DNA of 64,000 bases, from NCBI GenBank assembly GCA_963674745.2, contig CAXXDV010000003.1, positions 1,472,001 through 1,536,000 on the forward strand, in the 5' to 3' direction. The DNA comes from Desulfosudaceae bacterium. GTDB lineage: Bacteria > Desulfobacterota > Desulfobacteria > Desulfobacterales > Desulfosudaceae. Positions 24,515 to 49,852 of the stretch are shown piece by piece. Position 1 is the stretch's first letter. Every line of letters begins with the position of its first letter. The notes beneath the pieces are model-generated. The model had not been told where the DNA came from, ran no database searches, and saw nothing but the letters and a program-made list of their open reading frames with translations. Both the position numbers and the translations under genes were made by a program.

Positions 24515-26140
24515 ATGATTTGCGCAACCAACGTGACCCTCGCCTACGGCAAGAGGGTTCTGTTCAAAGACGTCAATATAAAGTTTACACCGGGTAACTG
24601 TTATGGACTCATCGGCGCGAACGGCGCAGGAAAGTCCACATTTCTGCAAATTCTTTCCGGGAATATCGAGCCGGACTCGGGAACTGTCTCAGTTGGATCA
24701 AGGGAGCGAATCGCGGTTTTAAAGCAGGACCACTTTGCCTTTGACGAGGATACGGTTTTAAACACTGTGCTCATGGGCCATGAAAAGCTTTACAAAATTA
24801 TGGCAGAGAGGGAAGCGCTTTATGCCAGGCCCAATTTTTCCGTAGAAGATGGAATCAGGTCAGGTGAGATTGAAGTCGAATTCGAGGAGATGAACGGCTA
24901 TGAGGCAGAGTCTGAAGCGGCGGTCCTCTTAGACAGTCTGGGAGTTGCCGAAGAGATGCACCAAAGAAGGATGAAGGAGCTAGAAGGCGGAGATAAGGTC
25001 CGGGTACTCCTTGCCCAGGCCCTGTTCGGGAACCCGGACGTCCTGCTCCTGGATGAGCCTACCAACAACCTGGACATCAAGTCCATTGCCTGGCTTGAGG
25101 AATTTCTCTACAGGTTCCAGAACACGGTAATCGTGGTATCACATGACCGTCATTTCATGAACCAGGTGTGCACGCACATTGCAGACATTGATTTCGGTAA
25201 GATCGCTGTGTACGTAGGGAACTACGATTTCTGGTACCAGGCCAGCCAGCTGAACCTGAGACAGAAACAGGCGGAAAACAGGAAAATCACGGACCGGGCC
25301 GATGAACTAAAGGCTTTTATCCAGAGGTTCAGTTCCAACGCATCCAAATCGAAGCAGGCCACCTCCCGGAAAAAGCTCTTGGCGAAACTCACCATTGAGG
25401 ACATGCCGGTGTCCTCAAGAAGATACCCGTTTATTCGCTTCAAGCCGGAACGCCCCTGCGGCAACGTGATCCTGGAAGTGGACGGACTCACCAAGACCAT
25501 CGATGGTGAAAAGGTACTGAACAACGTGAGCTTTACTGTGAAAGGCGGGGACAAGATCGCCTTTACGGGCGGGAACAGCCTGGCCAGCACAACCCTCTTC
25601 CAAATCCTGGCAGGCGAGATTGAGCCGGACAGCGGTACTTTCTGCTGGGGACGCACAATTACCCATTCCTATTTCCCCAAGGAACACAGCGTTTATTTCA
25701 ATGGCGACCGGAGCCTTATCGAGTGGTTCCTGCAGTTCGCGCCCCCCACCGAGGGAGAGAGCTTTGCCAGAACCTTCCTGGGACGCATGCTCTTTTCAGG
25801 GGAAGAGGCCATTAAAAAGATCAGTGTGCTATCCGGCGGAGAAAAGGTTCGCTGTATGCTCTCAAGGATGATGCTTTCCGAATCCAATGTCCTGATACTG
25901 GATGAACCCACCAACCACCTGGACCTGGAATCGATCACTGCCCTAAATGATAGCCTGCTCAAATTCCAGGAAGTGATTCTTTTCACCTCCCATGACCATG
26001 AGTTCGTGAATACCGTGGCAAACCGGATCATAGAAATCACCCCAGGCGGCGTCATTGACCGGCTCATGACTTTTGAAGAGTATATTGAAAGTAAGGAAGT
26101 CGCGGATACCCGGGAAGCCATGGCCAGGAAGGCCGCTTAG
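24515..26140 (+). CDS. ABC-F family ATPase (YbiT/YkpA-like)
   Basis: GNCYGLIGANGAGKST, LDEPTNNLD, FSSNASKSKQATSRKK linker, second cassette LSGGEKVR; likely start ATG 24515. Confidence 0.92.
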   Translation: MICATNVTLAYGKRVLFKDVNIKFTPGNCYGLIGANGAGKSTFLQILSGNIEPDSGTVSVGSRERIAVLKQDHFAFDEDTVLNTVLMGHEKLYKIMAEREALYARPNFSVEDGIRSGEIEVEFEEMNGYEAESEAAVLLDSLGVAEEMHQRRMKELEGGDKVRVLLAQALFGNPDVLLLDEPTNNLDIKSIAWLEEFLYRFQNTVIVVSHDRHFMNQVCTHIADIDFGKIAVYVGNYDFWYQASQLNLRQKQAENRKITDRADELKAFIQRFSSNASKSKQATSRKKLLAKLTIEDMPVSSRRYPFIRFKPERPCGNVILEVDGLTKTIDGEKVLNNVSFTVKGGDKIAFTGGNSLASTTLFQILAGEIEPDSGTFCWGRTITHSYFPKEHSVYFNGDRSLIEWFLQFAPPTEGESFARTFLGRMLFSGEEAIKKISVLSGGEKVRCMLSRMMLSESNVLILDEPTNHLDLESITALNDSLLKFQEVILFTSHDHEFVNTVANRIIEITPGGVIDRLMTFEEYIESKEVADTREAMARKAA

Positions 26141-34335: not shown

Positions 34336-34400
34336 ATTCCGGGGACAGCATATCTATTTCATATTCAACATGACCGAAATAAGTATACTGTTCCCGGAAT
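34336..34400. repeat. Inverted pair of 25-bp GGGGACAG/CTGTCCCC-type REP elements at left island border
   Basis: ATTCCGGGGACAGCATATCTATTTC (34336-34360) and GAAATAAGTATACTGTTCCCGGAAT (34376-34400), 21/25 complementary. Confidence 0.8.
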
Positions 34401-34535
34401 ACCTTCATCCCCCCCCCTCACCTTCCCGGCAAGTGACGCGCAGCGGAATCCCGGGTCGAGTCCAGGACAGGCTTAAGCCGGGGGCAAGTATAAAAATATG
34501 ATCATCCTCTAGCAAATCCCGCGTGTGGGAAAATC

Positions 34536-34564
34536 TTGACACCCTAGACCGCCTTTGTTATACA
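34536..34564 (+). promoter_or_regulatory. Putative sigma70 promoter of island + operon
   Basis: TTGACA-17 bp-TATACA with extended TG. Confidence 0.5.
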
Positions 34565-34714
34565 TAACAGCGAAAAAAAACAAGTTCTTATGCTTTTTGT
34601 ATCCTATTAGGTCATAAGAATGCTGCAAAAATTTACAAGTATTAAATCTTCCAATTGGGAGCTAATCAAACCATTACAATACAATTAAAAATCAATATAT
34701 AAGTTGAGATTCTT

Positions 34715-35650
34715 ATGAACTATCCAAAGATTACAATAGCCGGGGATTTAGGAAGTGGGAAAAGCACCATTGCCCAAAAAATATCAAAAAAATTATCAAT
34801 TAAAAGTTACTCTACTGGAGATATCCAACGGAAAATAGCGGAAAAATATGACAAAACAACACTTGAACTTAATGAATATATGAAAACTCATCCTGAAATT
34901 GATGAGGAAATTGATAATTTTACAATCAGTTTAAGTGAAAAAGAAGAGTCGTTTATCATTGATTCAAGAATGGCATGGCATTTTATAGAAGGAGCCTTTA
35001 ATCTTTTTTTGAAAGTAAGACCCGAAGTCGCGGCACAAAGAATTTTTGATGATCAAATAAGAATCAGCGAAACATATAAAAATGTTAACGAGGCATTAAA
35101 TAACATTTTGGAAAGAAAACTTATCGAGAATGATAGATTTAAACAATTATATGGGGTCGATTGTGAGAATATTGCCAACTATGATATGGTTGTAAACACT
35201 TCAAACGTCCCAGTTGATGCTATAGTGAATATTATATTAAGTGAATTTGATAAATGGAAAAACGACAAACATACCCCCTATTATTGGATCAACCCAAAAT
35301 TATTAATTCCAACACAGGATGTTATCGTGCTGGGAAGAGATGAAGGTAAGCAAGTCTATGATTCAATGCAGTGTAATGGGTTTAATTATGAGTTTCCGGT
35401 TTTAGCGATAAATATTGAAAATATTTCTTATATTTACGATGGGCACAAACGGACAAGCGCTGCGATAATGCATAATATACCTTTGGTTCCAATAGTTGTA
35501 ATAGCTACTGATGACGAAAAAATGCCCTTTAATATTACGGCTAAGCAGTTTGTAAAAACAGAATCGATTCAAAATTATATTTATAACTGGGAGAGTTGTC
35601 ATCGCTATAACTTTTCAGACTACATAAATGAAAATTTTTTTAAGGAATAA
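34715..35650 (+). CDS. Archaeal-type cytidylate kinase fused to ParB/sulfiredoxin-like domain
   Basis: ITIAGDLGSGKST, STGDIQR, IIDSRMAWHF, RFKQLYGVD, YDMVVNTS; C-terminal LIPTQ...PVL...IYDGHKRTSAA...VP. Confidence 0.85.
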   Translation: MNYPKITIAGDLGSGKSTIAQKISKKLSIKSYSTGDIQRKIAEKYDKTTLELNEYMKTHPEIDEEIDNFTISLSEKEESFIIDSRMAWHFIEGAFNLFLKVRPEVAAQRIFDDQIRISETYKNVNEALNNILERKLIENDRFKQLYGVDCENIANYDMVVNTSNVPVDAIVNIILSEFDKWKNDKHTPYYWINPKLLIPTQDVIVLGRDEGKQVYDSMQCNGFNYEFPVLAINIENISYIYDGHKRTSAAIMHNIPLVPIVVIATDDEKMPFNITAKQFVKTESIQNYIYNWESCHRYNFSDYINENFFKE

Positions 35651-35652
35651 CA

Positions 35653-38136
35653 ATGCCATCTGTTGAAAATGATTTATACGACACTTATCTGTCCGAAAAA
35701 AATGAAATAGACAACATTGATGATATTTTATCCCAAACTTTAAAAATATTTAATGATTTCTATGACAATGATACAGCCTGGCCATACGAAATTCGTCATG
35801 ATGAAAATGATGGAAAAGCTAAAAGACCAAACCGTTTCTCTTTCAGCACTACAATTATGATTCTTCATTCCATCGCGGCATCTTTAGGAAAGTTAAAGGG
35901 ATCTCATATCGCATTTGGCATAGATAGAAATAGTTGTATTTTCAAAATTCCGAAAATATATAAAGAGCTTACTGAAGACCTATTGGAAAAGTATGAAAAA
36001 AGTCTGGAATTAATTATCCAAAAATCCAAATTAGAAAAAAAAGTAAACAAAATACATGTTACTTTTGACTCATCAAATTTTGGAATAAATGATCCTTTTT
36101 CTTATTCATGGTTTTTAGAAATATTCTATTCTCACTCCAATGGTAAGCATTCGGAATACAAATCACAGTTAATTAAAGACGCCATTGGGATGCTTGAAAG
36201 GTCAATCAAGAGCTTAGAAAAAGGCGACAAAGGGTTCTTAATATGGCGCAATAAAAAAGAATTAAAACATTATGAATCATTGCGTCATTCTTTTCCATTA
36301 TTACGTGCTATCAATGTTTTACTCGTTTTATATAAAAATGAAGAAAATGAGGTTAAATCTTTATTTGAGAATAATATTGAAAAATTATCACAACATTGTC
36401 TTTCGTGCATCTATCGACATTTATCGTTAAAGGACATAGAACATGGCGACTTTGATGTTGCTGAGCTTGTTTTAAGCCTTGAGGCTTATCTTTTACTGAC
36501 ACAACAATCGAAAATAAATATCAATAAAAATATGCTAGATAGAATTTTTAATATAATTGAGGAAAGTCAAAAGACAAGCACATATTGGAGGCCATTAAAG
36601 CCATTTGTCAAAACAAAATCAGGTTTTGTCCTATTGCCATTAAGTATCGAAATAACGAACTCTTTGTTAAGGATATGCCACATTATTCGCGAATCATATT
36701 TACAAGAAGATTATTTTACTCCATATGTTCATATTTTCAGAAAGTACACAACATGGTTATTGACTAGAGTAGAAAAGAATCACACTAGCCATTCTAGCGA
36801 TCAAAAACAATTTACAGGCTGGCACTCAGAGAATGTGCTTGAAACTGGTGTTGTCCACCCTTGGGATACATCTCAAGTGGTTTTATTTTTACTTCAATAT
36901 AGAGCAAGCCTAAAAGAACACATTGCAAAGAAATCATTAGAAGAAACAAATTTATATTCATATAAAATATCAAGGAAAAAACACAATAAATCATCGTCCC
37001 CAATAGATGCAATGCAATACTGGATAGATAATTGGCAGGACACTGAACCTCTATCCTCCTTGACTGAAGAGAGCAGTTATTGTGTTTTAAAAAGAATTGG
37101 AGAGAAATACATTAAACCACGGTTAGAGAATAATGATGGAGAAGACCCTTTTTATTCTATGTTATTATATGGCCCACCTGGAACAGGGAAAACCGCTATA
37201 GCTGAAGAAATTGCGAAAAGCCTTCAATGGAATTTCATAAACATCACGCCCAGCAACTTTATCAAAAAAGGTGAGTCTGAAGTTGAAAATAGAGCCAATA
37301 ATATCTTTACAGCACTATTGGAACAAAATAATTGTGTTATTTTATTTGATGAAATCGATCGCTTAATTCTGGATAGGGATTCTGGTGATTATCATAAGCA
37401 GAGCGATATTTTTCAATTCATGACACCAAGTATGCTTGTAAAATTCAAAAAATTAAGAGATAAGAATAATTCTATTTTCATTATTGCAACAAATTATGAA
37501 GAACGTATAGACCCTGCAATAAAAAGAGTTGGTAGAATAGATGAAAATTTTTTGATTGTTCCACCAGATTCAGCCCAAAGATGGAACATTATAAAAAAAA
37601 TATTAGCTTCCGAAAAAAATCAGGAATTAAAGTCTATATACGATCGAATCAATAAGGATGATATAATAACAACAATAGAGAGAACTTGCTTATATAAATT
37701 TGGTGAACTGAAAAAGCTGACTAATGACGTTATGAATGAATTTGCTAAAAACGAAATAACAAAAACAGCTTTGGTTTCCTGTTTTGATAGTGCAGAAATC
37801 CCACCCCCTGAGCTTACGTTGTCAAAATATAAAAACTTGATATTTAAAAATAATAGGAAAAATAATAACATCACCTCGAATCAAAAGCCGTATGAAGAAT
37901 ACCTTATTCTTTTTTATTTAAAATATATTGATGTCCACAACGAGTCTTCCCAAGATAGAACTGACGTTGTGAATTTTCAAAAAGTAGTCAAAGGAATATG
38001 TAATAACAAAACTCCCAAAATCGAAAGGGATTTCAAAGATTCAATCAAGCCGGTAATCAAAGACAATTATATAATAAACAAATTGTATACTTTTTATAAT
38101 AATATCCCAAGTGATGGTAATGGACAGAATAAATAG
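35653..38136 (+). CDS. AAA+ ATPase with ~490-aa uncharacterised helical N-terminal region
   Basis: LLYGPPGTGKT, ILFDEIDRL, ATNYEERIDPAIKRVGRID (SRH). Confidence 0.88.
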   Translation: MPSVENDLYDTYLSEKNEIDNIDDILSQTLKIFNDFYDNDTAWPYEIRHDENDGKAKRPNRFSFSTTIMILHSIAASLGKLKGSHIAFGIDRNSCIFKIPKIYKELTEDLLEKYEKSLELIIQKSKLEKKVNKIHVTFDSSNFGINDPFSYSWFLEIFYSHSNGKHSEYKSQLIKDAIGMLERSIKSLEKGDKGFLIWRNKKELKHYESLRHSFPLLRAINVLLVLYKNEENEVKSLFENNIEKLSQHCLSCIYRHLSLKDIEHGDFDVAELVLSLEAYLLLTQQSKININKNMLDRIFNIIEESQKTSTYWRPLKPFVKTKSGFVLLPLSIEITNSLLRICHIIRESYLQEDYFTPYVHIFRKYTTWLLTRVEKNHTSHSSDQKQFTGWHSENVLETGVVHPWDTSQVVLFLLQYRASLKEHIAKKSLEETNLYSYKISRKKHNKSSSPIDAMQYWIDNWQDTEPLSSLTEESSYCVLKRIGEKYIKPRLENNDGEDPFYSMLLYGPPGTGKTAIAEEIAKSLQWNFINITPSNFIKKGESEVENRANNIFTALLEQNNCVILFDEIDRLILDRDSGDYHKQSDIFQFMTPSMLVKFKKLRDKNNSIFIIATNYEERIDPAIKRVGRIDENFLIVPPDSAQRWNIIKKILASEKNQELKSIYDRINKDDIITTIERTCLYKFGELKKLTNDVMNEFAKNEITKTALVSCFDSAEIPPPELTLSKYKNLIFKNNRKNNNITSNQKPYEEYLILFYLKYIDVHNESSQDRTDVVNFQKVVKGICNNKTPKIERDFKDSIKPVIKDNYIINKLYTFYNNIPSDGNGQNK

Positions 38137-40171
38137 CCCCTATAAAAGCAGTTATATTGACAAATTGTCTGAACAATTAAAATGCATTGTGCATAAAGGT
38201 GATAATTTTTATGTATCGGCGCCAATTACAAGCGGAAAAAGGTTTATATCTTGGTATAAATCAACAGGGAAAAACCTAAAAGGAAAAGGCGATAATATTT
38301 ACCGCCATGAACACTTTCAATCAGTTATCACTAAAAATATTGAAGAGGCAAACAACAAAATTTGTGCTCTTAAAAATAGTATTGATGGAATTATTATTGA
38401 CCCTTCAAAACTTGAATTTCAAGAATGGGAACAGGACGAATACCGTTATTATTGGGGTAAAATTATTGAACAATATGTTAACACTGTCATTTTCTTAGAT
38501 AGCTGGGAATACAGTAACGGATGCACCTTTGAATTCTTAAAAGCTTCAAATTGTGGTTTAAAAATCTTAAATGAGGATTTAAAGACTTTAACAGTCGTTG
38601 ATGGGTTAGAACTGCTTAACAAGTCAATTCATGCCCTAAAAAAGAATGGACTTCCAACAGCCTATATTGAAAAAATTATAAATGAATTACAAAACATCAT
38701 ATCTATTAACCTCCCCGTTAATTCAAGCCAACAATCTATAGAAGTTTCTTGGACATTAGAGAAGAAAGAGATCGATACTCTTCATTACAAAGATGAAATT
38801 CTTAACGATATAGCATTTTTTGGGAATGTCGCCCAGTTTGTAAGTTTTAACAACGACAATTTTTTATCAAGACGGTTCAATCGAATTTCAGGATTCGAAC
38901 CTAATCATAATTTTGAATCCGCAAAAAATGCAATCGAGCATTTGCTTGAAAATTCAGTTGACCATAAAGTAAATATAAGAAGCTTCCGCCCCGATAATCC
39001 GAAAGGCTGTCCATTCATTTATGGACTTTCGTCTGTTGATGATGTGTTAAATAATATTATCAAATTATCTTCTGAAGGATTATATACAATAGTAAATGAA
39101 ACCATTGATGTATCAGATAGCGGTGTTTCTGGCGTCTTGCTAAATGATTTAATAGAATTTTCTCCTGATGATACGCCGAAATGCGTCGAAAAAGCAGGAA
39201 CTTGTAGGTTGCCACGGATTTTAGGCATAAAACTATTAAGTAAAATTTATGGTTTCTTTCCTCTGCTGAATTATCCGCCTGAATATCGTGTTGAGTTTAG
39301 CATTCACCCGATTAGAAGAGGATTTTTGAAAGAGCATACAATTATTTGGGAAATTGAATATTTTGGAGATGTAAAAAATTCCTTTGAAATTGATTGGCCC
39401 AACAATTTCAGTAGATTTATTGGTGATAAAGCTTTTGGACTTCTACTAGCTGATACGATTCTCTTACCAGTTCCAAAAACACATGTGATAGGAAAAAGAT
39501 TACCTGTATTTAGTTTTGGCCAGAATACGCAGACAAACGAGTATTGGATCAGAACTTGTCCGGAAGTTCCAGAACCAGGTTATTACACAACAAAGTTTGG
39601 ATGGTCTGACCCCTTTGAGTTAATGTCTGAGAAACAAGATGAGGTTAACTGGTCATCTTCAAAATCGCCTGTAAAATCTATTCTTTCCCAAGAAAGTGTC
39701 GAACCGATATGGTCTGGTGCCTTGATGTCAAGTGCCAACTCTTCTAAGCCAGTTATTGAGGGGGTTAAAGGTCGAGGTGATAAATTTATGCTCGGGAAGC
39801 GAATAGAAGTTCTTCCGAATGACGTTATGCAAGCAGTACATCATTTATACAATGCTGCTTTCAGCCAGATTGGGCCAGTTCACATTGAATGGGTTTTTGA
39901 TGGCCAAAAAGCATGGTGTGTGCAAATTCACAAATTGAAAGAGAACAGTATCAGTAGTGATATAATCGTTGAAGGCCATAAAAACACCAAATATGTTAAT
40001 TATTATACAAAGAACGGACTTGACGGATTAAGGTCTCTTATCAAATCAATGTCTGAAGACAACGATGGGGGGGGGGTTAATCTTATTGGCGATATTGGTA
40101 TTACAAGCCATTTTGGTGATCTGTTAAGAAAAGCAAAAATTCCATCCAAGATCGTTCGTTCAGAATCGTAG
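38111..40171 (+). CDS. DUF4406/nucleoside-2-deoxyribosyltransferase-like domain fused to tandem PEP-synthetase-type ATP-grasp domains and phospho-His swivel motif
   Basis: YVSAPITSG...DP...WEYSNGCTFE (DUF4406 pattern); GDKAFGL..LPVP, VIEGVKGRGD, IEWVFDG..CVQ (PPDK_N pattern); GITSHFGDLLRKAKIP (cf. GGxTSHAAIVARELGIP). Start may be ATG 38114/38120. Confidence 0.72.
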   Translation: MMVMDRINSPYKSSYIDKLSEQLKCIVHKGDNFYVSAPITSGKRFISWYKSTGKNLKGKGDNIYRHEHFQSVITKNIEEANNKICALKNSIDGIIIDPSKLEFQEWEQDEYRYYWGKIIEQYVNTVIFLDSWEYSNGCTFEFLKASNCGLKILNEDLKTLTVVDGLELLNKSIHALKKNGLPTAYIEKIINELQNIISINLPVNSSQQSIEVSWTLEKKEIDTLHYKDEILNDIAFFGNVAQFVSFNNDNFLSRRFNRISGFEPNHNFESAKNAIEHLLENSVDHKVNIRSFRPDNPKGCPFIYGLSSVDDVLNNIIKLSSEGLYTIVNETIDVSDSGVSGVLLNDLIEFSPDDTPKCVEKAGTCRLPRILGIKLLSKIYGFFPLLNYPPEYRVEFSIHPIRRGFLKEHTIIWEIEYFGDVKNSFEIDWPNNFSRFIGDKAFGLLLADTILLPVPKTHVIGKRLPVFSFGQNTQTNEYWIRTCPEVPEPGYYTTKFGWSDPFELMSEKQDEVNWSSSKSPVKSILSQESVEPIWSGALMSSANSSKPVIEGVKGRGDKFMLGKRIEVLPNDVMQAVHHLYNAAFSQIGPVHIEWVFDGQKAWCVQIHKLKENSISSDIIVEGHKNTKYVNYYTKNGLDGLRSLIKSMSEDNDGGGVNLIGDIGITSHFGDLLRKAKIPSKIVRSES

Positions 40172-40190
40172 GATACGGTCATAGACATAT

Positions 40191-40208
40191 TAACTTTTAA
40201 AAAAGTTA
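40191..40208. terminator. Short inverted repeat at the junction of the convergent island operons
   Basis: TAACTTTT-AA-AAAAGTTA overlapping the DruA stop codon; AT-only stem so weak. Confidence 0.3.
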
Positions 40209-41402
40209 AAACTTCATTTTCTTTATCATGTTCGAACTATAAACTTGATTATTTTTGATTATATTTAAGATATTATTATTATCCCAATATCTATAGTTGG
40301 GTAGCCTTTTACTTCTCCCTAAAATCCAACGATCTATTGCCTGTTCAGCAACCTCATCAACTGAATATAAGAATTTGAAATTTGGTCTTTTATTTTCTCC
40401 CCTTAACACCTTTCTAGCGTTAGATGCCAATTCAGAAATATAGATTTCTCTCTTAATACCATGACACAATATATTAGGATTCATGCCTATTTGTGATAAA
40501 GTTTTTTTAACAGTTCGTATGCGCCAATTTGGGCCATCACCAAAATTGAAATCAGATTCATAATTATCGTCAGTTCGTTTTAAATATTCTACCATTAAAC
40601 TAAAAATACGGTTGGAAATGTGGAAATGTCCCCACCCAGTTGTATAACCTACTGACGTAAAGTAATTCACCTGATTTAGTTTTAAACGATTATAAATAGA
40701 TGATTTCCCTAATGCCGATGAAGTTGTTACCATTAATAATGAAGGATTTTTTTGTTTTTTAGAGATCAATCCAGTTTTTGATGCATACTTATTTTTAAAA
40801 AAAGAGAGGACTTCTCTTGTTCTGACTAGACATGCGACTAATTTCCCACATAGTAACTCATTATAAGGTGGGATTGCCCCTAAAACATACGCATCAAGCA
40901 CATTGACTAGTCTTTCTTTTCTATCATCTGCATTCCATGCAATAAAATCGTCTCTAGGCTTTAAATTAAAAACGGGGTCACCAAGAGCAATAATTCCAAT
41001 TAATTTATTAATATTTTCATCCCATACTAAAAAACGCATCCTCCTTCCATAACCCTGAGAAACGGGAATGCTCCATGTTAAACTTGCTAAACGGAATAAA
41101 TCACTTTGCCATGTTTTTGATTTAATAATTTCAATCCTTGGTTTAATTTTATGGGCTGTGATTTCTGATCCATTCGCAAAATAATTTTTTAATCGGGGCC
41201 ATTGGAAATTAACAAAATCAATATATTTATTGAAATTGTCAATCCTTTGAAGAAGGTGTGCTTTTCTAATATTATCTTTATTGACATTTGGAGGGATTAA
41301 AGCGCCTGTATCAGACTTAGAAAAGCCTAATTTTTTAAGGTGGCTTCTTACCTCTCTTTTAAGCTTTGCTTCTAGCGAAAATAGAGTTATTGGCTTATTC
41401 AT
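40206..41402 (-). CDS. druA: Druantia DruA-like (DUF4338) protein
   Basis: WSIPVSQGYGRRMRFLVWDE..KLIGIIALGDPVFNL..RD..I.W, AYVLGAIPPYNELLCGKLVA, TTSSALGKSSIYNRL, GYTTGWGHFH, FGDGPNWR. Confidence 0.82.
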   Translation of the reverse strand: MNKPITLFSLEAKLKREVRSHLKKLGFSKSDTGALIPPNVNKDNIRKAHLLQRIDNFNKYIDFVNFQWPRLKNYFANGSEITAHKIKPRIEIIKSKTWQSDLFRLASLTWSIPVSQGYGRRMRFLVWDENINKLIGIIALGDPVFNLKPRDDFIAWNADDRKERLVNVLDAYVLGAIPPYNELLCGKLVACLVRTREVLSFFKNKYASKTGLISKKQKNPSLLMVTTSSALGKSSIYNRLKLNQVNYFTSVGYTTGWGHFHISNRIFSLMVEYLKRTDDNYESDFNFGDGPNWRIRTVKKTLSQIGMNPNILCHGIKREIYISELASNARKVLRGENKRPNFKFLYSVDEVAEQAIDRWILGRSKRLPNYRYWDNNNILNIIKNNQVYSSNMIKKMKF

Positions 41403-41431
41403 TAGTTTTCAACTTTACCTTAAAGTAATTG

Positions 41432-42487
41432 CTACTTGAGTGGTATTAATTGGAATACCCAAGAAGCTCCTATTCCCTCACTAAATGATTCAGAGAAATA
41501 CTGAGGGGGTACACTCGTAACAACAGTGATTGATCTAATAATATTCGATAAAACCCAGCATGCAACAGTCTGTAATTTTGAACCTAAAATCGCCAAGTGG
41601 ACATCATATTTCTGAAGCAAGGAATCATCAGAAAACAGAAACGAAGAAAATTGTGCTATTGCATTACGATATGCAAAAGTATCCATTTCAATCAATTCTC
41701 TATTTTTTGTGATTTCTTTATTAATATCTTTTAAAGCATCAAGGCGCCATGCATTTATTGACAATCTAGGACGACCTGCAATAAAAAGAAATTGAGAATA
41801 CTCATCTGCGCCAACAATGGCAGCCAACCTAGCATATTTATAGGACAAAAATCCAACCAAAGCACGATTACATCCCGCAGAATCATACCCTTCATGATCG
41901 GGTATAAGCTCAACAAATTGTTCATATCCAAAAAGCCAAGGTTTAGTATCAACTATCTCTGCAATATTTTCGTTGGCTGTCAGTTTTTCTTTAAGTTGCT
42001 CCCAATCCTTTTTTCTAGGCCAATATATATCGGCTTCTGTGTAACCAATGAATATATTTTTGTCACTCTTGTTCGCCGAATCTAACGCACCAAACAAACC
42101 ACGATTAGAGATACTTGTGATATCTATGAGGACATCATTTGTATCGGTTTTGTTTATTGCTTCGCTGACCCATAATCCGGCATTATGATTTTCAATAACA
42201 AACCATCTATTGGGCGCAATTTTTTCAGCCAATTGTTCAATTCGGGCTCTATATTTTTTATTAAGTAACGGGTTGTCAATATACCTCCCAATTACAATTG
42301 ACGATATTTTACAATTATAATATTCAATTTTTTCAAGAATCCCTATTGTTCTTTCTTCAAAACCTTCTGCCATCACAATGCTAAAGGGGTTATCAATTTC
42401 TGCTAACCACTGACTAAAATCTCGCTCGTCATATGAACGATTAAGAAAATCTTTAAGTGCTTCTTCTTCGATACTAACGAAGTCCAT
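41432..42487 (-). CDS. Hypothetical alpha/beta (tandem Rossmann-like) protein, partner of ORC/CDC6-like ATPase
   Basis: Full ORF coupled to upstream gene (3-bp gap); motifs GFEER, LIDITS, YTEA.IY.P, LVGFLSY...R, ILGSKLQ. Confidence 0.75.
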   Translation of the reverse strand: MDFVSIEEEALKDFLNRSYDERDFSQWLAEIDNPFSIVMAEGFEERTIGILEKIEYYNCKISSIVIGRYIDNPLLNKKYRARIEQLAEKIAPNRWFVIENHNAGLWVSEAINKTDTNDVLIDITSISNRGLFGALDSANKSDKNIFIGYTEADIYWPRKKDWEQLKEKLTANENIAEIVDTKPWLFGYEQFVELIPDHEGYDSAGCNRALVGFLSYKYARLAAIVGADEYSQFLFIAGRPRLSINAWRLDALKDINKEITKNRELIEMDTFAYRNAIAQFSSFLFSDDSLLQKYDVHLAILGSKLQTVACWVLSNIIRSITVVTSVPPQYFSESFSEGIGASWVFQLIPLK

Positions 42488-42490
42488 TAC

Positions 42491-45010
42491 TTATTCTCCA
42501 GGGATAAGAGGTGTTTCTTCGGGGTGTTTATTCCATATCATATTAGGGTTAAGTAACCAACTTTGATATTCATGAACAGTTAAAGGAATGGATCCTGATC
42601 GTGTTGGGCTAAATGGAAAACAAGGTGCAAATAAGCGACGGAAATAATATTTTCTTGTAGGTAAGCCTGCCCTGCTTTTACCAGCACCTCCAGGAATTAA
42701 AATGCTATGCCTGAGAAGTTCATCATGTAATTCTTTTGCTTCTGTATTAAGCTCTCCTTCGCCTTCAATTTCAATTCTAAGTCGTTCATCAGCTTGATCT
42801 TTATTTTTTGAATCAAGAAGATATTGTTTGATTAAATTTCCAAGTTTTTCGGCAAATTTATGCAATTGTGGTCCAAATTTTGCGGTAGTGCGAAGATCTG
42901 CTAACTGCCTTTGTGCAAAACGTTTGACAATTTCATCTTGCTCTTTGCTAGATATCTTTTTCACCTTTTTCCCCCATCGTCCCGAAGTAATATTGTTTAA
43001 CAATTCAATAATATAGCTAACGTCTCCTGAGCAAAGGCGACAGATAAGACTAAATCCATAAAATTTTGACTTTCCTGGTGGCTTATAATTACAAATATAT
43101 TTTCCAAAATTCGAGTCAAACTCATGTTCTCCCAAAATATTTTTAAGTTCTAATAAACTACCTTTCTGAGTCGCTTCGAAACGTGCCGTTAAAATTTGTT
43201 CAAAAAAAATCAAACAAGTTTTTTCATCGTTTTGAAAATAAACTTCGCCTAAATTTACTTTCGTGTATTCCCGGCTTTCTTTATATTTTCGATCTAAAGT
43301 ATCCTCAAAGACTGGCCCATCACCTTCACTGCTAAATTTGATTTCCACCTCACTTGAGAGTCTAAATAGAACAGGGCTATATGAAAGGATTGTTAACTGT
43401 GGAAGTATTGTATAACTAAAATCATCCAAAAGAAACCAAATGCTTTTTGATGCAATCCAAGGGATAGACTTTATTGCCCGAGTAAACAGAATTAATGAGT
43501 TGTCACCGCAAATGTTTGAAGGTTTATATGATGATGGATTATAAAGATTGGATAACTCTACGATCCTTCTATCAATAAATCCTATAATATCGTTTACGGT
43601 AGTTATACTTTTATCATTTATCTTTAGGAGCGCCAACATATCGCGTGTTAATGGCTTTAAATCATCATCAGATATTTCTGCAAGGTTTTCAGTTTTAAGC
43701 CAGACAATTGTTCTTAATACTTCAAATAGAAAGTGCGCGTTAATAAATTCCCTACAAAAATCTTCAGCTAATTCTCTATCTTCAATTTCAAGCTTTTTAT
43801 ATGACGAACGAAGAAATGGCGTTCGCAATTCACCAACATTAAGCATGAATGCAATATATTCATTACCATTGAGACGTGTAGCAACTTCTTCAGGTTCTTT
43901 CTCACCAATTTTAGGACGCGCTTGGCTTGAAATCGATAAATATCGTAAGAGCATAGTTTTTCCACAACCACGTGGACCTACAATCAACACAGGTTCTGAT
44001 CTAATAATCTTCTTTTGCCATTCCAAAGAATCTCTGAATAATAAAGCTATGTCTTGTGGTGCAAGGTTTATAGCATTAGTTTTATCTAAAGGCTCCCCAA
44101 AAGATATATTTGATCTTTTTTTCATTTCATTAAATGTTTGAAAATCGTATCCAGTTAAAGAATCCTGTAATGAATTATCTAGTTCAATAATAACATCTGA
44201 AGGAGTAAAATTACGCCGTGAAATATTGGCATCAGAAAGCCTTGAGGCAAGTTGACGTAAACGTCGAGCAAAGGAACGATCTGCTGGGGTTAGTGATTGT
44301 CTGTTGATCATTTCAAATTTAGCAATTAAGCTTAATATGTGCTTACTAAGATATAAATAATCATTACCATCAATTGTTTCAGGTTCTCCCAAGACTAATT
44401 CTTTTACTGAACCAAAATCAATTAATTTTGACTCATACCGTTCTGGAAGGTTTTCATCAGATGCTACTTTTCTTATTAGTATATTGTCATCGTGTAAATC
44501 ATCATGCCAAAGTCCCTTTGAATGCATGCGAGACAATCCACTTGCAATACCCTTTAGAATCCCAACAACATCGCTTTTGTTTAATTCAACCGCGGATTCA
44601 CTGATAAACTTATTTAATGATTGTGCTCTATCAATATATTCAAAAACTATGCATACAATTGATATGTTTTGACCCAACAAATTCACATTCTCTTTTATTT
44701 CTCTAATAAATCTTGCAATATTACGATGCGGAGAACATTCTGCAAGAGCCCTCGCTTCCTTATTCTCTAAAGTCTTTTTTAAACGGTGAGAAGGGATAAT
44801 TTTCATTGCAAATGTTTGATAACTATCTACGACTTTAATTGTCCAACCATAAAAACCACGGCCAATTAAATTTACCATTTCATATTCATGAATTTTTAAA
44901 CTCAGTAATTCACTTTCAATATCAATCGGCTTACTACATTTTGGACAACTTTCATGAATATCTAAAGATTTACCATCGCAAAAAAAGCATCCGAGATCTT
45001 TTGTTGACAT
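42491..45010 (-). CDS. Zn-ribbon + Ser/Thr-kinase-like domain fused to ORC/CDC6-STAND-like P-loop ATPase
   Basis: CFFC..CPKC; IGRGFYG, FAMKII, KEAR, HDDLHDDNIL, LIDFG; GPRGCGKTMLL Walker A, WFLLDD Walker B, LCSGD. Confidence 0.85.
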   Translation of the reverse strand: MSTKDLGCFFCDGKSLDIHESCPKCSKPIDIESELLSLKIHEYEMVNLIGRGFYGWTIKVVDSYQTFAMKIIPSHRLKKTLENKEARALAECSPHRNIARFIREIKENVNLLGQNISIVCIVFEYIDRAQSLNKFISESAVELNKSDVVGILKGIASGLSRMHSKGLWHDDLHDDNILIRKVASDENLPERYESKLIDFGSVKELVLGEPETIDGNDYLYLSKHILSLIAKFEMINRQSLTPADRSFARRLRQLASRLSDANISRRNFTPSDVIIELDNSLQDSLTGYDFQTFNEMKKRSNISFGEPLDKTNAINLAPQDIALLFRDSLEWQKKIIRSEPVLIVGPRGCGKTMLLRYLSISSQARPKIGEKEPEEVATRLNGNEYIAFMLNVGELRTPFLRSSYKKLEIEDRELAEDFCREFINAHFLFEVLRTIVWLKTENLAEISDDDLKPLTRDMLALLKINDKSITTVNDIIGFIDRRIVELSNLYNPSSYKPSNICGDNSLILFTRAIKSIPWIASKSIWFLLDDFSYTILPQLTILSYSPVLFRLSSEVEIKFSSEGDGPVFEDTLDRKYKESREYTKVNLGEVYFQNDEKTCLIFFEQILTARFEATQKGSLLELKNILGEHEFDSNFGKYICNYKPPGKSKFYGFSLICRLCSGDVSYIIELLNNITSGRWGKKVKKISSKEQDEIVKRFAQRQLADLRTTAKFGPQLHKFAEKLGNLIKQYLLDSKNKDQADERLRIEIEGEGELNTEAKELHDELLRHSILIPGGAGKSRAGLPTRKYYFRRLFAPCFPFSPTRSGSIPLTVHEYQSWLLNPNMIWNKHPEETPLIPGE

Positions 45011-45022
45011 TAAATTACTCCC

Positions 45023-45553
45023 TTAATTATCTTTTTCAATCGCCTGAAACATTTGCTTTGATACATTTTCTAACCTATCAAGAACATGACTTACCGAAAA
45101 GCCTGAGATTAAAGCTATAGAATAAAGAAGGTATTGACCTTGGGGTGAAAAGTCTATCTGGTTTCCAGACGAAATAATTTGAAACCCTATAAAACTTAAT
45201 GTATATGTAAGAGCTCCTAAGATAGCCCCCAGCAGAGGTCTTGTGAGATAATAATAAACCCATCCCCAACTCCAATCTAATGATACATTATTGTTGTTAG
45301 CAATGTTTGTACTATATGTAATAAGAGTCTTATAATATTTTCTGATTGCCGCCATGGATGCCCCAAGCATTCCGAATGTGCCACAAATGAAATGTGCTCG
45401 CATAAGTTTGTCATCTTTTAGAAAAGTCACAATATCCAGATGAAATATCGTTATGGCAAATGCCGCTACAATTAAACATATTAAAAGTAAGATCCCGACG
45501 ACATAACATGCAGTAGGATAGTAACAATTATTGTCTGGATTATGCGTTTTCAT
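45023..45553 (-). CDS. Small 4-TM membrane protein
   Basis: Hydrophobic helices with GMLGA, WVYYYLTRPLLGAILG, IALISGFS..VLDRL; first gene of the - operon. Confidence 0.78.
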   Translation of the reverse strand: MKTHNPDNNCYYPTACYVVGILLLICLIVAAFAITIFHLDIVTFLKDDKLMRAHFICGTFGMLGASMAAIRKYYKTLITYSTNIANNNNVSLDWSWGWVYYYLTRPLLGAILGALTYTLSFIGFQIISSGNQIDFSPQGQYLLYSIALISGFSVSHVLDRLENVSKQMFQAIEKDN

Positions 45554-45647
45554 ATCTTTTTACCCTTAATTTGTTGAGGAGAGGAAATTATTTACGTTGT
45601 TATTACAAATAGCAATTAAGCATAGAGCATTGTTTTCATTATCATTG

Positions 45648-45676
45648 TTTTTATCAATATTGATATTTTGTGTCAA
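45648..45676 (-). promoter_or_regulatory. Putative promoter of island - operon with palindromic operator in spacer
   Basis: Minus strand TTGACA-17 bp-TAAAAA; perfect palindrome TATCAATATTGATA at 45652-45665. Confidence 0.45.
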
Positions 45677-45691
45677 TGTATTTAAATCAAT

Positions 45692-45845
45692 CTTGGTCGG
45701 ACCAGGATAACAGGTTGGACTACTTAAACTGGGTCGGACCTAATAACAGTCTGGTCTGACACAAGATAAACCTCAAAATCACTGCAAGACAAGGCTTAGG
45801 AATTCTGAGGAATTCTGGGAATTCTGGTGCCAGTATACCTATTTC
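45692..45845. repeat. Repeat cluster at right island border
   Basis: Three GGTC(G/T)GAC..ATAA units (45692-45770), GAATTCTG x3 (45800-45827), and ATTCTGGTGCCAGTATACCTATTTC (45821-45845) related to the left-border element. Confidence 0.7.
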
Positions 45846-45856
45846 TGCTCCGTTCA

Positions 45857-46825
45857 TCATCTGTTCCTGTTTAAAATGCTGATGATCAACCGTTTGACGG
45901 TTTCCATTTCATCCGGCCTGCTGACGGCGACAAATAGAGTCAGGCTGGCCAGCGCTTCATTGCTTATGGTGAGGCTCTCTTTTTCAGGGCGCAGACGGTT
46001 GTTCTTTTCCAGAAACAGAAGAAAGCATGCGGCGGCAATGCGCTTGTTGCCGTCAACAAAAGCGTGGTTTTTTACAACCAGATAGAGCAGGGTAGCGGCT
46101 TTCTCCTCAAAGGTGGGATACAGGTCTTTCTTGCCGAAGCCCTGGCGGATCTGCGCAACGGCGCTTTTAAAACTGTCATCGCGTTCCTGCCCGAAGACCC
46201 TGGAATTAAACTCAGCCCGCATCTGCTCCACAATGTCTATATAGTCTTCATAGACGGGATAGGTGACCCGCTTTTTGGTTGCGCCGCGGGCGTCAAGGGT
46301 TTCATGATCGTAATCGTCCAGCAGCCGCAGTCCCGCGGCATACAGGTTAAGCCATTTAAAATCCGCGTCCGTCGCCTGGTCTTCAATGGCCCGGCTTAAA
46401 ATGCGGATGCCGTCTTTCAGATGCCGCACCTCCTGCTGTTTCTGGGCCAGCCGCTTTTCGTTGATGGCGTAACCCTGCACCAGATAGTCTTTGAGGCGCT
46501 TGGTGGCCCACTGGCGGAACTGGGTGCCCCGCTGCGATTTTACGCGGTAACCCACGGAAATAATAACGTCGAGGTTGTAAAAAGCAACGGGCTTATCTGA
46601 ATCTGCAATATGCATTTTTTGCATATTGCTTTTCCGATCAAGTTCTCTTTCTTTAAATACATTATTGATATGCCGGGATATGACGGATTGATCTCGCTGA
46701 AATAACAGCGTTAATTGTTCCTGGCTCAGCCACACGGTTTCCTTGTCCAGGTTGACCTTAAGCTCGACCTGATTATCCGGCGAACGATAAATTTCCACTG
46801 CGGCCCGTTCATCTTTTCTGTTCAT
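45857..46825 (-). CDS. RhuM-family protein fused to Fic/DOC domain
   Basis: TVWLSQ, YNLDVIISVGYRVKSQRGTQFRQWAT; Fic motif HAFVDGNKR. Confidence 0.92.
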   Translation of the reverse strand: MNRKDERAAVEIYRSPDNQVELKVNLDKETVWLSQEQLTLLFQRDQSVISRHINNVFKERELDRKSNMQKMHIADSDKPVAFYNLDVIISVGYRVKSQRGTQFRQWATKRLKDYLVQGYAINEKRLAQKQQEVRHLKDGIRILSRAIEDQATDADFKWLNLYAAGLRLLDDYDHETLDARGATKKRVTYPVYEDYIDIVEQMRAEFNSRVFGQERDDSFKSAVAQIRQGFGKKDLYPTFEEKAATLLYLVVKNHAFVDGNKRIAAACFLLFLEKNNRLRPEKESLTISNEALASLTLFVAVSRPDEMETVKRLIISILNRNR

Positions 46826-46976: not shown

Positions 46977-47245
46977 TTGTCGGCAGATGCGCTACGCTTA
47001 TCGGCCCTGGGGAGATTGATATGAAAAGATTATTTCTTGATGACTGTTTACAAAAATGGATCCCCCGGTCAAGCCGGAGGATGACCTCGGAGGGGATGGG
47101 GGCAATTTATCTGGATGCCGGATCGGCGGCATGACGAGGTGGTATTAGGCCAATTGGTGGATGCGCTGTGCTTATCCACCCTACGATTCAGGTCCGGGAT
47201 GACGAAGGAAGTGGGTTCCCCGGTCGAGCCGGAGGATGACCTCGG
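46977..47245. repeat. Mosaic of palindromic repeats downstream of hrpB
   Basis: 34-bp direct repeat TGG.T.CCCCGGTC.AGCCGGAGGATGACCTCGG at 47057-47090 and 47212-47245; REP TGGATGCGCTGTGCTTATCCACCCTAC at 47158-47184; degenerate REP at 46977-47010. Confidence 0.8.
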
Positions 47246-47257
47246 TGTGAATTCTTA

Positions 47258-49852
47258 TCACTTCGGCCTGGGCTTGACCCGGTCCGTGGGTTTCGCGTTC
47301 AGGGGATCATCGGGCCAGTAATGCTTGGGGTAGCGCCCTTTGAGTTCTTTTTTTACGGCCGGATAACTGTTGCGCCAGAAGCCGGCCAGATCCCGGGTGA
47401 TCTGAGCCGGACGGCCGGCGGGAGAGAGCAGATGCAGTTGCAGCGGCAGACGACCGTGGACGATGGCGGGCGTATCCGCGGCGCCAAACATCTCCTGAAT
47501 CCGCACCGCCAGAACCGGTATTTCCGCGCTGTAATCGATGGGCCGGCGTGCGCCGGCGGGCACCACCACATGGGTGGGGGCCAGGGTGTCGAGCTGCTGC
47601 CGCTGCCGCCAGGACAGCCGGCTGTGCAGCGCGTTCCCCAGGTCCAGGCGCGCCAGCGCCCTGATGCTGGTGATGCCTTCCAGAAAGGGCTCCAGCCACG
47701 TTTCCAGATCAGCGGCCAGCGCCGCATCGGACAGGTCCGGCCAGTCTTCTTCCCCTGATGCGGCCCTTCGCAGCAGCATGACGCGGGCCTGCCAGGTGCG
47801 CAGGGCCCGAGTCCAGGGCAGAACGTCAATACCGGTTTTCCGGATGCCCGTTATCATGGCGGCGGTCAGGGCACGGGGATCGGGGCTGTTCAGAGGCTCA
47901 CTGCGCAGCGTAAGTGCATCCAGGATCAGCCGGCGCTCAGCGGCCACGGCCTGGCGCTGTTCATCCCAGACCACCCTGTCCTGCCATTGCACCCGGTGGC
48001 TGAATTGTTCCATCAGCGTGTCGCGATCATAAGCGGCGGCCATGAAAATGCGGGCCTCGCGGCGCTCGCCGTCCAGTTCGGCGATCACCAGAAAATCATG
48101 GGCGCCGAGAGGTTCGGGCGGCTTGAAAAAGGCGCCCCGGCCGCAGGTCATGAGATAACGGCCGGCACCGTCGGACCGCCGACAGGCAATACGGTCCGGA
48201 TAGGCCCAGGCCAGCAGACGGCCCACCTCGGGCGGCGCTTCCGGCCCGGTGTTTATATTCAGGCGCTGCCGCAGTAAAGCCGCGACTTTTACAATTCTGC
48301 GCATGGCACCATTGTCCACGCTGCAATCGGGAAGGCTGACAGGGGTGTGCGCCTTAAAGGCGTGCAGGGCATCAAGCCTGAGGCGCAGGTCGGCGTCCCG
48401 CAGGCCGCCTGTAAAAAAAAGCGGATCGCGTTCGCTTAAAATTGCCGCCAGTTCGCAGGCCGTGCGACCCATATCCGCCTTTCGGGCAGAAAGGACCATA
48501 TGCGCCAGACGTGGATGCATGGGCAGTTCCGCCATGAGGCGGCCGTGGGCGGTAATTTTACCCCGGTCATCCACGGCCCCCAGTTCGGCCAAGAGGCGCC
48601 GGGCCTGTTCAAAAGCCCCTGGCGGCGGCGGGTCCAGCCAGCCGAGCGCATCGGTCGATGTCACGCCCCACTCCGCCAGCTCCAGTGCCAGACCGGCCAG
48701 ATCCGTGTCCAGGATTTCAGGCCGGTTATGGGCGGCCAGTGTCGTATGAGCGGCTTCGCTCCACAGCCGGTAGCAGATTCCCGGCCCCAGGCGCCCTGCC
48801 CTGCCCCGCCGCTGATCGGCCGAGGCCCGGGACACCGGCAGGGTTACCAGCCGCGTCATGCCGGCACGGGGATCAAAGCGCGGGGCCCGCCGCAGGCCAC
48901 TGTCCACCACCACCCCGATCTGCTCGATGGTCAGGCTGGTTTCGGCAATCGATGTGGTCAGCACTATTTTACCACGCCCGGCCGGCGGCGGAGCGATGGC
49001 AGCATCCTGTCGATCGCGGGGCAAGTTGCCATAAAGGAGGGCCACATCCCAGCGGTCCGGCAAACCGGCCTCGGCCAGCAGGCGGGCCACCCGCCGGATC
49101 TCCGGAGCGCCGGGAAGAAAGACGAGCAGGTTGCCTTCTTCGGCGGCCGTGGATCGTAAAATGATTTCCATAACCGCGCGTTCAATAAAGTCCGGCTGAC
49201 GCGGAGGGACATAGCGGGTTTCCACGGGAAAGGAGCGACCCTGGCATTGAATCAGCGGCGCATTGTCCAACAGCGAGGTAACGGCCGCGGGGTCCAGCGT
49301 GGCCGACATTACCAGCAGTTTCAGGTGCTCGTTGAAATGTTCCTGGACCTCACGGCACAGGGCCAGCCCCAGATCGGCATCCAGGCTGCGCTCATGAAAT
49401 TCGTCAAAGATCACGATCCCCACGCCGGCCAGTCCGGGATCGGACTGCAGCATGCGGGTAAGCACGCCTTCGGTGATGACCTCGATGCGGGTGCGCGGGC
49501 CCACCCGGCTCTCCATGCGGATGCGATAGCCCACGGTCTCCCCCACCGGTTCCTTCAGCAGGGCGGCCATGCGGAAGGCCGCGGCGCGGGCTGCCAGACG
49601 GCGCGGCGCCAGAAGCAGTATCCGTCTGCCCTCCAGCCATGGGGCCGGCAGCAGTGCAAGGGGTATGGCGGTGGTTTTACCGGCCCCCGGCGGCGCAACC
49701 AGCACGGCGGACCGGTTACGGTTCAACACCGCCTCCAGTTCCTCAAGCACAGCGGCTATCCCGCATATTTCATGAAATTTTTCGACATGGATAATCATGT
49801 ATATCAAATACAAACTGTTGCAATAAAATGTAATCGTTTTTTCAAAATACAA
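47258..49852 (-). CDS. hrpB: ATP-dependent helicase HrpB
   Basis: PGAGKTT, DEFHERS, MSAT, TSIAETSLTI, QRRGRAGR, C-terminal LLSPAGRP..T.DL.GFW..SY..VKKELKGRYPKHYWP; true start probably downstream of 49852. Confidence 0.95.
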   Translation of the reverse strand: MYFEKTITFYCNSLYLIYMIIHVEKFHEICGIAAVLEELEAVLNRNRSAVLVAPPGAGKTTAIPLALLPAPWLEGRRILLLAPRRLAARAAAFRMAALLKEPVGETVGYRIRMESRVGPRTRIEVITEGVLTRMLQSDPGLAGVGIVIFDEFHERSLDADLGLALCREVQEHFNEHLKLLVMSATLDPAAVTSLLDNAPLIQCQGRSFPVETRYVPPRQPDFIERAVMEIILRSTAAEEGNLLVFLPGAPEIRRVARLLAEAGLPDRWDVALLYGNLPRDRQDAAIAPPPAGRGKIVLTTSIAETSLTIEQIGVVVDSGLRRAPRFDPRAGMTRLVTLPVSRASADQRRGRAGRLGPGICYRLWSEAAHTTLAAHNRPEILDTDLAGLALELAEWGVTSTDALGWLDPPPPGAFEQARRLLAELGAVDDRGKITAHGRLMAELPMHPRLAHMVLSARKADMGRTACELAAILSERDPLFFTGGLRDADLRLRLDALHAFKAHTPVSLPDCSVDNGAMRRIVKVAALLRQRLNINTGPEAPPEVGRLLAWAYPDRIACRRSDGAGRYLMTCGRGAFFKPPEPLGAHDFLVIAELDGERREARIFMAAAYDRDTLMEQFSHRVQWQDRVVWDEQRQAVAAERRLILDALTLRSEPLNSPDPRALTAAMITGIRKTGIDVLPWTRALRTWQARVMLLRRAASGEEDWPDLSDAALAADLETWLEPFLEGITSIRALARLDLGNALHSRLSWRQRQQLDTLAPTHVVVPAGARRPIDYSAEIPVLAVRIQEMFGAADTPAIVHGRLPLQLHLLSPAGRPAQITRDLAGFWRNSYPAVKKELKGRYPKHYWPDDPLNAKPTDRVKPRPK

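Follow-up and report, generated by a model that had tools for sequence, protein, structure and literature searches.

Stk2, a stand-alone kinase, and NTPases of the Avs/STAND group act in phage defence, and Pgl (BREX type 2) is built around the proteins PglW, PglX, PglY and PglZ. Closer in domain make-up to the subject of this study is a "small family" described in the available portions of Makarova et al. (2014; PMC4012209), in which a Zn ribbon, a Ser/Thr/Tyr (S/T/Y) kinase, an AAA+ ATPase with an Arg in its P-loop, a CARF domain and a winged helix-turn-helix domain are joined; the same portions propose that the CARF domain acts within a kinase-mediated signalling pathway, and they discuss a phage-made nucleotide as ligand of CARF proteins outside CRISPR systems. 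Here we describe a four-gene operon in a 64,000-nucleotide (nt) stretch of a Desulfosudaceae bacterium genome (contig CAXXDV010000003.1; hereafter the window, position 1 being its first letter). The operon occupies positions 40206–45553 of the minus strand and encodes a membrane protein, a kinase-ATPase, a tandem-CARF protein and DruA, with gaps of 12, 3 and 29 nt. Judged by its sequence, the kinase-ATPase is a split member of the family printed in 2014 and catalogued in PADLOC-DB, and its apparently missing sensor is the next gene, the tandem-CARF protein. With the kinase-ATPase as its enzymatic core, the operon is, on balance, predicted to be a horizontally moving, nuclease-free anti-phage system in which the CARF partner gates the kinase. 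Its genes and the domains of the kinase-ATPase are as follows.

45023..45553, minus strand: small predicted membrane protein, 176 amino acids (aa), first gene of the operon
42491..45010, minus strand: kinase-ATPase P0001, 839 aa, ATG start; Zn ribbon, Hanks-type kinase and ORC-CDC6-like AAA+ ATPase
44936..44989, minus strand: Zn ribbon of P0001, residues 8–25, CxxC-x10-CxxC
44153..44884, minus strand: protein-kinase domain of P0001, residues about 43–286
42581..44092, minus strand: AAA+ ATPase (ORC-CDC6-like) and C-terminal alpha/beta region of P0001, residues about 307–810
41432..42487, minus strand: tandem-CARF protein P0121, 351 aa, sensor-like partner 3 nt downstream of the kinase-ATPase
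40206..41402, minus strand: DruA (DUF4338), 398 aa, full-length, last gene of the operon

The kinase-ATPase and its tandem-CARF partner

A preliminary description of this DNA had read the ORF (open reading frame) at 42491..45010 as a Zn-ribbon/kinase/ORC-CDC6-like ATPase fusion, and both the reading frame and the domain calls stand: Pfam Pkinase covers residues 43–211 (E 3.4e-20), and PF24389 (ORC-CDC6-like) scores 147.4 bits against a cut-off of 27 (E 8.1e-43), matching in two stretches that correspond to profile positions 2–317 and 411–571. The translation holds two cysteine pairs (C8-x2-C11 and C22-x2-C25), each Cys being retained in at least 90% of 16 close relatives, followed by a kinase N-lobe with a Gly loop (G50-R-G52-F-Y-G55), K70 in the motif FAMK and E85 in helix C, a catalytic loop (H169-D-D171-L-H173-D-D-N176) and D198-F-G200. 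The ATPase carries Walker A (G345-PRGCGKT-352) and Walker B (LLDD, with D529 and D530). All of the kinase and P-loop motifs that had been listed earlier are thus present, and they are conserved in a family alignment of 70 sequences with identity down to 19%: G52, G55, K70, E85, D171, N176 and G200 of the kinase are invariant, as are G345, R347, G348, G350, K351, D529 and D530 of the ATPase and, further on, R610, G662 and D663; H169, H173 and D198 are retained in at least 90% of the sequences. The invariance of the kinase and Walker residues places both enzymes under purifying selection and, together with the strong Pfam scores, argues that the motifs are not chance. R347, which is also invariant in a set of 32 ATPase-only sequences (profile A5), fits the P-loop Arg reported in the available part of PMC4012209.

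Related proteins share this layout. A search of 5.8 billion proteins yielded 126 relatives; among the best 120 of these, 92 show 37–65% identity, most are about 845 aa long, and PF24389 matches all and Pkinase nearly all. The family is of modest size, with 334 representatives at E <= 1e-10 among 1.84 billion sequences.

Hanks-type kinases carry a Lys in the catalytic loop, canonically HRDLKxxN, and an activation segment that ends in an APE motif. The Gly loop, the VAIK Lys, the helix-C Glu, the catalytic Asp and Asn and the DFG motif of such Ser/Thr kinases are all found in P0001; its loop, HDDLHDDN, has HDD instead of HRD and His173 in the place of the Lys, and just 16 residues lie between DFG (198–200) and the next helix (217), with no APE motif. 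The non-canonical HxDLHxxN loop had been noticed in the preliminary description; the conservation of His173 makes the unusual residue a family trait and not a sign of decay. Chains of PknG align to positions 18–288 of the family profile A2, and whole-model fold searches (VIA-align wide search; Foldseek against BFVD) returned kinase matches only. In the AlphaFold model of P0001, with a predicted local distance difference test (pLDDT) value of 90.6, residues 745–820 form a strand/helix/hairpin region, in the C-terminal part that the preliminary description took for a probable winged helix.

The preliminary description had concluded that the protein, lacking the TPR sensor typical of Avs, appears to be of a different class, and this did not survive inspection of the next gene. 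P0001 matches positions 4–727 of the PADLOC-DB model PDLC01925, "CARF6--CARF_STK_AAA" (1187 positions; E 6.4e-57), and P0121, encoded 3 nt downstream, matches positions 893–1184 of the same model (E 2.5e-19). The name CARF6 is said to come from the CARF classification of 2020. Residues 105–349 of P0121 also align to residues 983–1227 of P0111, a fused protein of 1229 aa (E 1e-8). Single fused ORFs of 1122–1226 aa occur in 4 of 25 loci of one clade of relatives (clade B below; L018, L019, L025 and L028), and a fused 1206-aa "hypothetical protein" is encoded on a Loktanella plasmid; the split form is the commoner one, being found in the other 21 clade-B loci and in all loci of clade A. In the window the two ORFs are parted by a stop codon and the 3-nt gap. 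All 11 close loci have the CARF gene after the core, and no complete locus is without it. Its product has invariant polar residues after strand ends (E44, R46, D122, G302-S303-K304 and Q306, given as sequence positions only); its profile found 0 matches among solved structures, and the ESM Atlas returned only "hypothetical protein" clusters. Predicted as a complex, the CARF protein (A3) and the ATPase half (A5) scored 0.11 against a mark of 0.32, which counts neither way.

P0001 and P0121 together therefore hold the Zn ribbon, the S/T/Y kinase, the AAA+ ATPase with P-loop Arg and the CARF domain of the 2014 family, on two polypeptides instead of one. The architecture, which had appeared to be of a different class, is not new: it is printed in the available portions of PMC4012209 and catalogued in PADLOC-DB. 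To that extent the protein is assigned to something already described; a named or tested system to which it belongs was not found.

Linked genes, related loci and the genomic island

The remaining two genes of the operon encode DruA and the membrane protein. DruA, its last product, is a clear member of its family (Pfam DruA, E 5.7e-88; PADLOC DruA PDLC00002, E 5.4e-176); against solved structures the single sequence gave 0 matches and the profile gave matches at chance level only (E at least 0.27). The membrane protein has a strong hydrophobic segment at about residues 9–47 (maximum Kyte-Doolittle value 3.15) and a weaker one at about residues 106–129, and G61, G64, G97, G109, G113, G123, G139 and G151 are invariant in eight sequences; no family in Pfam, PADLOC or NCBIfam matched it, and the ESM Atlas held "hypothetical" clusters only. 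Promoter-like sites (19 around the operon, against a shuffle mean of 26.8) and terminator-like sites (2 against 3.2) show no excess.

The window was compared with 43 related loci on contigs from a one-genome-per-species collection, all ORFs being searched with hidden Markov models built from the loci. Clade A comprises the window and L001–L017 (18 loci) and clade B comprises L018–L042 (25 loci); L043 is a fragment and was placed in neither. Linked genes are distributed as follows.

DruA: clade A 16/18 (not in L005; L014 is a 3.6-kb fragment); clade B 0/25
Membrane protein: clade A 10/18; clade B 0/25
N6/N4 DNA methyltransferase: clade A 0/18; clade B 24/25 (not in L032)
ThyX-family gene: clade A 0/18; clade B 11/25

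DruA and the methyltransferase occur together in 0 of 44 loci, and the one clade-B locus without a methyltransferase has an insertion sequence (IS) transposase upstream. DruA precedes the core in L008, L012, L013 and L015–L017, the membrane gene comes after the core in L016 and L017, and in L004 the membrane-gene position is taken by another membrane ORF; linkage that persists through such rearranged gene order argues for shared function. The ATPase region was used for a quick maximum-likelihood tree (32 rows; the careful search is unfinished and several branches are long), which omits the four fused forms as well as L004, L014, L032, L034, L038, L040, L041 and L043. In it, 15 DruA-linked and 16 methyltransferase-linked rows fall on opposite sides of one branch, with a value of 99 in the Shimodaira–Hasegawa-like approximate likelihood-ratio test (SH-aLRT), so that the swap between DruA and methyltransferase may have happened once. 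The two clades share 19–25% identity, and the hosts span at least eight phyla, including one archaeon; each partnership has been kept across deep divergence and many phyla. The nearest rows to the window are metagenome-assembled genomes labelled Deltaproteobacteria, Syntrophobacterales and Verrucomicrobiia, and this disagreement between tree and taxonomy indicates horizontal transfer.

Several clade-B loci hold further genes. The ThyX-family gene (PF02511) adjoins the CARF gene in L020, L022, L023, L026, L030, L031, L032, L034, L035, L037 and L042, being encoded on the other strand in L022 and L030, and matches no PADLOC family. Immediately upstream of the core, the usual place of the methyltransferase in clade B, L023 encodes a Mom-family protein (PF25680, E 4.5e-10); its methyltransferase lies downstream of the ThyX gene. 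Genes for a SIR2_2 protein and a ParA-like ATPase lie upstream in L030, and one for a ResIII/HSDR_N helicase lies downstream in L021.

Within the host phylum, 401 genomes contained PF24389 in 11 cases and DruA in 66. Six DruA matches in this sample span the whole profile, two of them in the present cassette (the window and G043, which probably repeats a locus already counted and is not taken as independent). The other four (L093, 9023–11777; L094, 6512–10535; L095, 6177–10282; L096, 9624–16810) adjoin or lie near a pair made up of an unknown protein of about 375–388 aa and a HerA-like (mad8-like) ATPase of 584–608 aa; no DruB-E model matched any of 19 scanned neighbours. In L096 a TmtA-like gene stands between DruA and the pair, and type IIG or type III restriction-modification (R-M), HmaC-like, HEC-05-like and GajB-like genes are found nearby in this group of loci. 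DruA with the HerA-like pair may be a third type of system that uses DruA, and its occurrence beside different ATPase cores makes it look like an accessory serving several ATPase-centred systems. Most DruA-family matches in the phylum cover only about positions 30–226 of the profile, in ORFs of about 300 or about 710–800 aa; several recur within a single genome as copies that score alike, and contig ends are a frequent location (e.g., G324 C1, C12 and C2; G403 C15, C32 and C50; G248). In this they behave as a repeated mobile element and not as a defence gene.

The cassette itself is single-copy in the 99.96%-complete host genome and lies in a distinct island.

34399..45900, no strand: low-GC island carrying the cassette, GC 0.31–0.37 against 0.5–0.6 in the flanks; right edge drawn from the GC rise only

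Synteny with the congener G002 (97% identity) stops at position 34398. At the same site, after a mltA-like gene, the congener carries the type I R-M genes HsdM, HsdS and HsdR (L062; G002:C6, 3883–15509) together with genes for a Schlafen/AlbA_2 protein, a protein with a Fic-like C-terminal domain and an 841-aa ORF without a family, which marks the site as a variable hotspot of defence genes. The cassette was not found in the 20 relatives searched, where the only match was a weak, kinase-only one in G017. A survey of viral contigs found six loci, with one close relative only, at the end of a 36.7-kb contig; the cassette is thus not typically phage-borne. No tRNA was found in the window, and no convincing direct repeat flanks the island ends.

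Neighbours of the cassette match the PADLOC models PDC-S23, IetA-like and pVip-kinase-like. Three tightly packed plus-strand genes at 34715–40171 share the low-GC island: the first encodes 311 aa, of which the N-terminal part is a (d)CMP-kinase domain (TIGR02173, 108 bits; cut-off 102) and the C-terminal half is unassigned, and also matches PADLOC pVip-kinase and VakA, the second encodes 827 aa with a C-terminal classic AAA domain (the IetA-like matches) and the third encodes 686 aa without a family. At the right edge of the island, 45857–46825 (minus strand) encodes a RhuM and Fic/DOC protein (PADLOC candidate PDC-S23, E 7.5e-123). Searches of the 43 related loci found neither the three plus-strand genes nor the RhuM-Fic gene, which places all four outside the cassette; the plus-strand trio may be a separate candidate defence module. 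Between the island and a hrpB-like helicase gene lies a GC-rich 44-nt direct repeat with internal dyad symmetry (47054–47097 and 47209–47252, copies 84% identical, 155 nt apart). Positions 1–131 of the congener's locus L062 have short matches to window positions 26073–26138 and 47254–47313, which suggests a dispersed intergenic repeat.

A predicted anti-phage role and its alternatives

This context agrees with the phage-defence role that had been proposed in the preliminary description, and the cassette, which is widespread, is probably anti-phage. Observed directly are the domains, the conserved catalytic residues, the CARF fold of the partner, its fusion in relatives, the gene linkage and the setting in an island and hotspot; the defence role, the ligand, the targets and the following order of events are what we infer. 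The tandem-CARF subunit would bind a nucleotide-derived signal of infection, one possibility being a phage-made nucleotide, and pass the signal to the AAA+ ATPase, to which it is fused in other members of the family. An ATP-driven change in the ATPase would then switch on the N-terminal kinase, which would phosphorylate proteins of the phage or the host, the small membrane protein or DruA possibly among them, and the phosphorylation would halt the infection or the infected cell. The membrane protein would serve as co-effector, and DruA, whose place a methyltransferase takes in the sister clade, would add a second enzymatic function, as a self-marking enzyme or co-effector.

Several points weigh against this account. 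No experiment on any member of the family was found in the literature searched, and the cassette holds no nuclease or other classical effector. In the host genome, Cmr2-type Cas10 (TIGR02577) and SMODS (PF18144) each gave 0 matches and Csm1 (TIGR02578) reached only 23 bits against a cut-off of 170, other cyclase families not having been searched; the genome therefore holds no recognisable cyclic-oligonucleotide synthase of the families searched, such as cyclic-oligoadenylate signalling calls for, and the CARF ligand is left without a known source. His173 in place of the Lys and the short segment after DFG are compatible with either a protein or a small molecule as the substrate class. The A5 profile matched solved chains at the level of the P-loop only (dynein, ORC4 and Msp1), the match to ORC4 (E 1.3e-4) covering just profile positions 37–71 and being level with the other two, so that the ORC/Cdc6 label comes solely from the Pfam model. 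L005 yielded no DruA, and in 8 of the 18 loci of clade A the membrane family went undetected (two of the eight, L012 and L014, being short contigs and a third, L004, having the other membrane ORF), which implies that neither gene is strictly required. Finally, a single change suffices on the tree, and the 0 of 44 loci with both DruA and methyltransferase are thus not independent trials.

The main rival, which we hold to be possible but unlikely, is an epigenetic system of the Pgl/BREX type 2 or MADS kind that tells self from non-self: DruA or the methyltransferase would mark host DNA, the C-terminal DNA-binding region of the ATPase would read the mark, and the kinase and CARF protein would regulate and not execute. 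The exclusive distribution of the two immediate neighbours (clade A, DruA in 16 of 18; clade B, methyltransferase in 24 of 25) speaks for it, as does the Mom-family protein at the usual methyltransferase position in L023, and the kinase domain has weak matches to mad6 (E 9.9e-19) and PglW (E 2e-4) of PADLOC and to MAD6 (E 2.3e-10). MADS is an operon with methyltransferases and kinases, as set out in the accessible part of PMC13662399, and DUF4338 is called a GNAT-type acetyltransferase domain, sometimes fused to DndF, in that of PMC10853773. However, no DNA-modifying activity is known for DruA, an hhalign comparison of DruA with the Mom-family protein of L023 gave a probability of 0.2% and hence no support, the cassette has no nuclease or other restriction component, and the swap of DruA for methyltransferase is a single event on the tree.

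Less probable again is a role outside immunity, with the operon as a stress-signalling or regulatory module, or as an addiction module that stabilises the island, travelling with defence genes. Apart from the small membrane protein, nothing in the cassette is an evident killing effector, no phage phenotype is known, and CARF-like and kinase domains occur in regulators, such as the RtcR-type CARF regulators treated in the available portions of PMC4012209. Yet the distribution is patchy with horizontal transfer across phyla, the congener holds R-M genes at the site of the cassette, and the sister clade is tied to DNA methyltransferases, with some loci tied to ResIII or SIR2 genes; all three run against a non-immune role.

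Small-molecule kinases of the protein-kinase fold commonly have an HxDxHxxN loop. It is accordingly conceivable, though improbable, that the substrate of the "kinase" is a small molecule or nucleotide, and that the enzyme thereby makes or destroys the ligand read by its CARF partner; besides His173, retained in at least 90% of the 70 sequences, the 16-residue interval after DFG without APE and the ThyX-family nucleotide enzyme after the core in 11 of 25 clade-B loci point this way. Least of all do we credit the first proposal, read as a kinase effector complete in itself and gated by its ATPase, in a new class that resembles Avs but has no sensor: a P-loop ATPase is fused to an enzymatic domain without TPR or other repeats, as that proposal would have it, but it is contradicted by the tandem CARF, which is encoded 3 nt downstream, occurs fused in relatives and is missing from no complete locus, by the absence of NACHT or NB-ARC matches and by the description of the family in the available text of PMC4012209.

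A more far-reaching reading can be put forward tentatively. The kinase-ATPase and its tandem-CARF partner would be the core of a nuclease-free immunity with two ancient forms, in which DruA is the functional equivalent of the methyltransferase and performs self-marking of an acyl-transfer type, and the CARF protein reads a phage-derived nucleotide and not a host cyclic oligoadenylate; we regard this reading as doubtful. If true, self-marking by DruA would also account for what the protein does in Druantia type I and next to the HerA-like ATPases.

If the cassette does protect against phage, it would be an immune system whose output is phosphorylation instead of nucleic-acid cleavage, with a CARF sensor working without a known cyclic-oligonucleotide synthase, which bears on what CARF domains outside CRISPR sense. 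The replacement of a DNA methyltransferase by DruA around an otherwise identical core is a testable lead to the function of DruA, which is unexplained in the literature searched, and DruA also accompanies a third kind of ATPase core, the HerA-like one. An operon linking the core to DruA and the membrane protein was not found in that literature, although the 2020 CARF classification may describe such neighbourhoods; the 2025 CRISPR classification mentions neither CARF6 nor kinase, and a preprint on YprA helicases does not contain "DruA" as a whole word.

Comparison with known systems

Compared with the CARF effectors of type III CRISPR systems (Can1, Csm6, Can2, Card1, Csa3 and Cam1), P0121 shows about 10% identity, has no nuclease or effector domain of its own and, for the families searched, occurs in a host without recognisable Cas10 or CD-NTase (Cmr2, Csm1 and SMODS). 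Like Stk2 and the Avs/STAND proteins, the kinase-ATPase is a kinase or NTPase with an enzymatic output domain. It differs from Avs/STAND, to which it had been compared in the preliminary description, in that it has no C-terminal repeat sensor (no NACHT, NB-ARC, TPR, WD40 or LRR family matched P0001 in Pfam at E <= 0.01) and has a separate CARF subunit; its C-terminal part is covered by the PF24389 profile, with which Pfam places the ATPase in the ORC-CDC6-like family. The comparison with Avs/STAND thus finds no support.

Pgl/BREX type 2 and MADS share with these loci a Ser/Thr-type kinase with ATPases beside a DNA-modification gene, as seen in the sister clade, and a weak similarity of the kinase. 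The match to PglW is confined to the kinase part, and the window has no PglX, PglY or PglZ; MAD6 (NF047741) likewise matches the kinase part only, at 39.6 bits against a cut-off of 460, and the window has no MAD nucleases or methyltransferase, the latter being absent from all 18 clade-A loci. With Druantia type I (DruABCDE) the operon shares a full-length, high-scoring DruA; none of eight island proteins scanned matches DruB-E, so the same protein is here wired to another core.

The closest relative is the family of Makarova et al. (2014), represented by PDLC01925. The window operon differs from it in being split (839 + 351 aa) and in adding DruA and the small membrane protein, neither of which is mentioned in the available portions of PMC4012209; the Zn ribbon, kinase, ATPase and CARF domain of the two core proteins are the same and stand in the same order.

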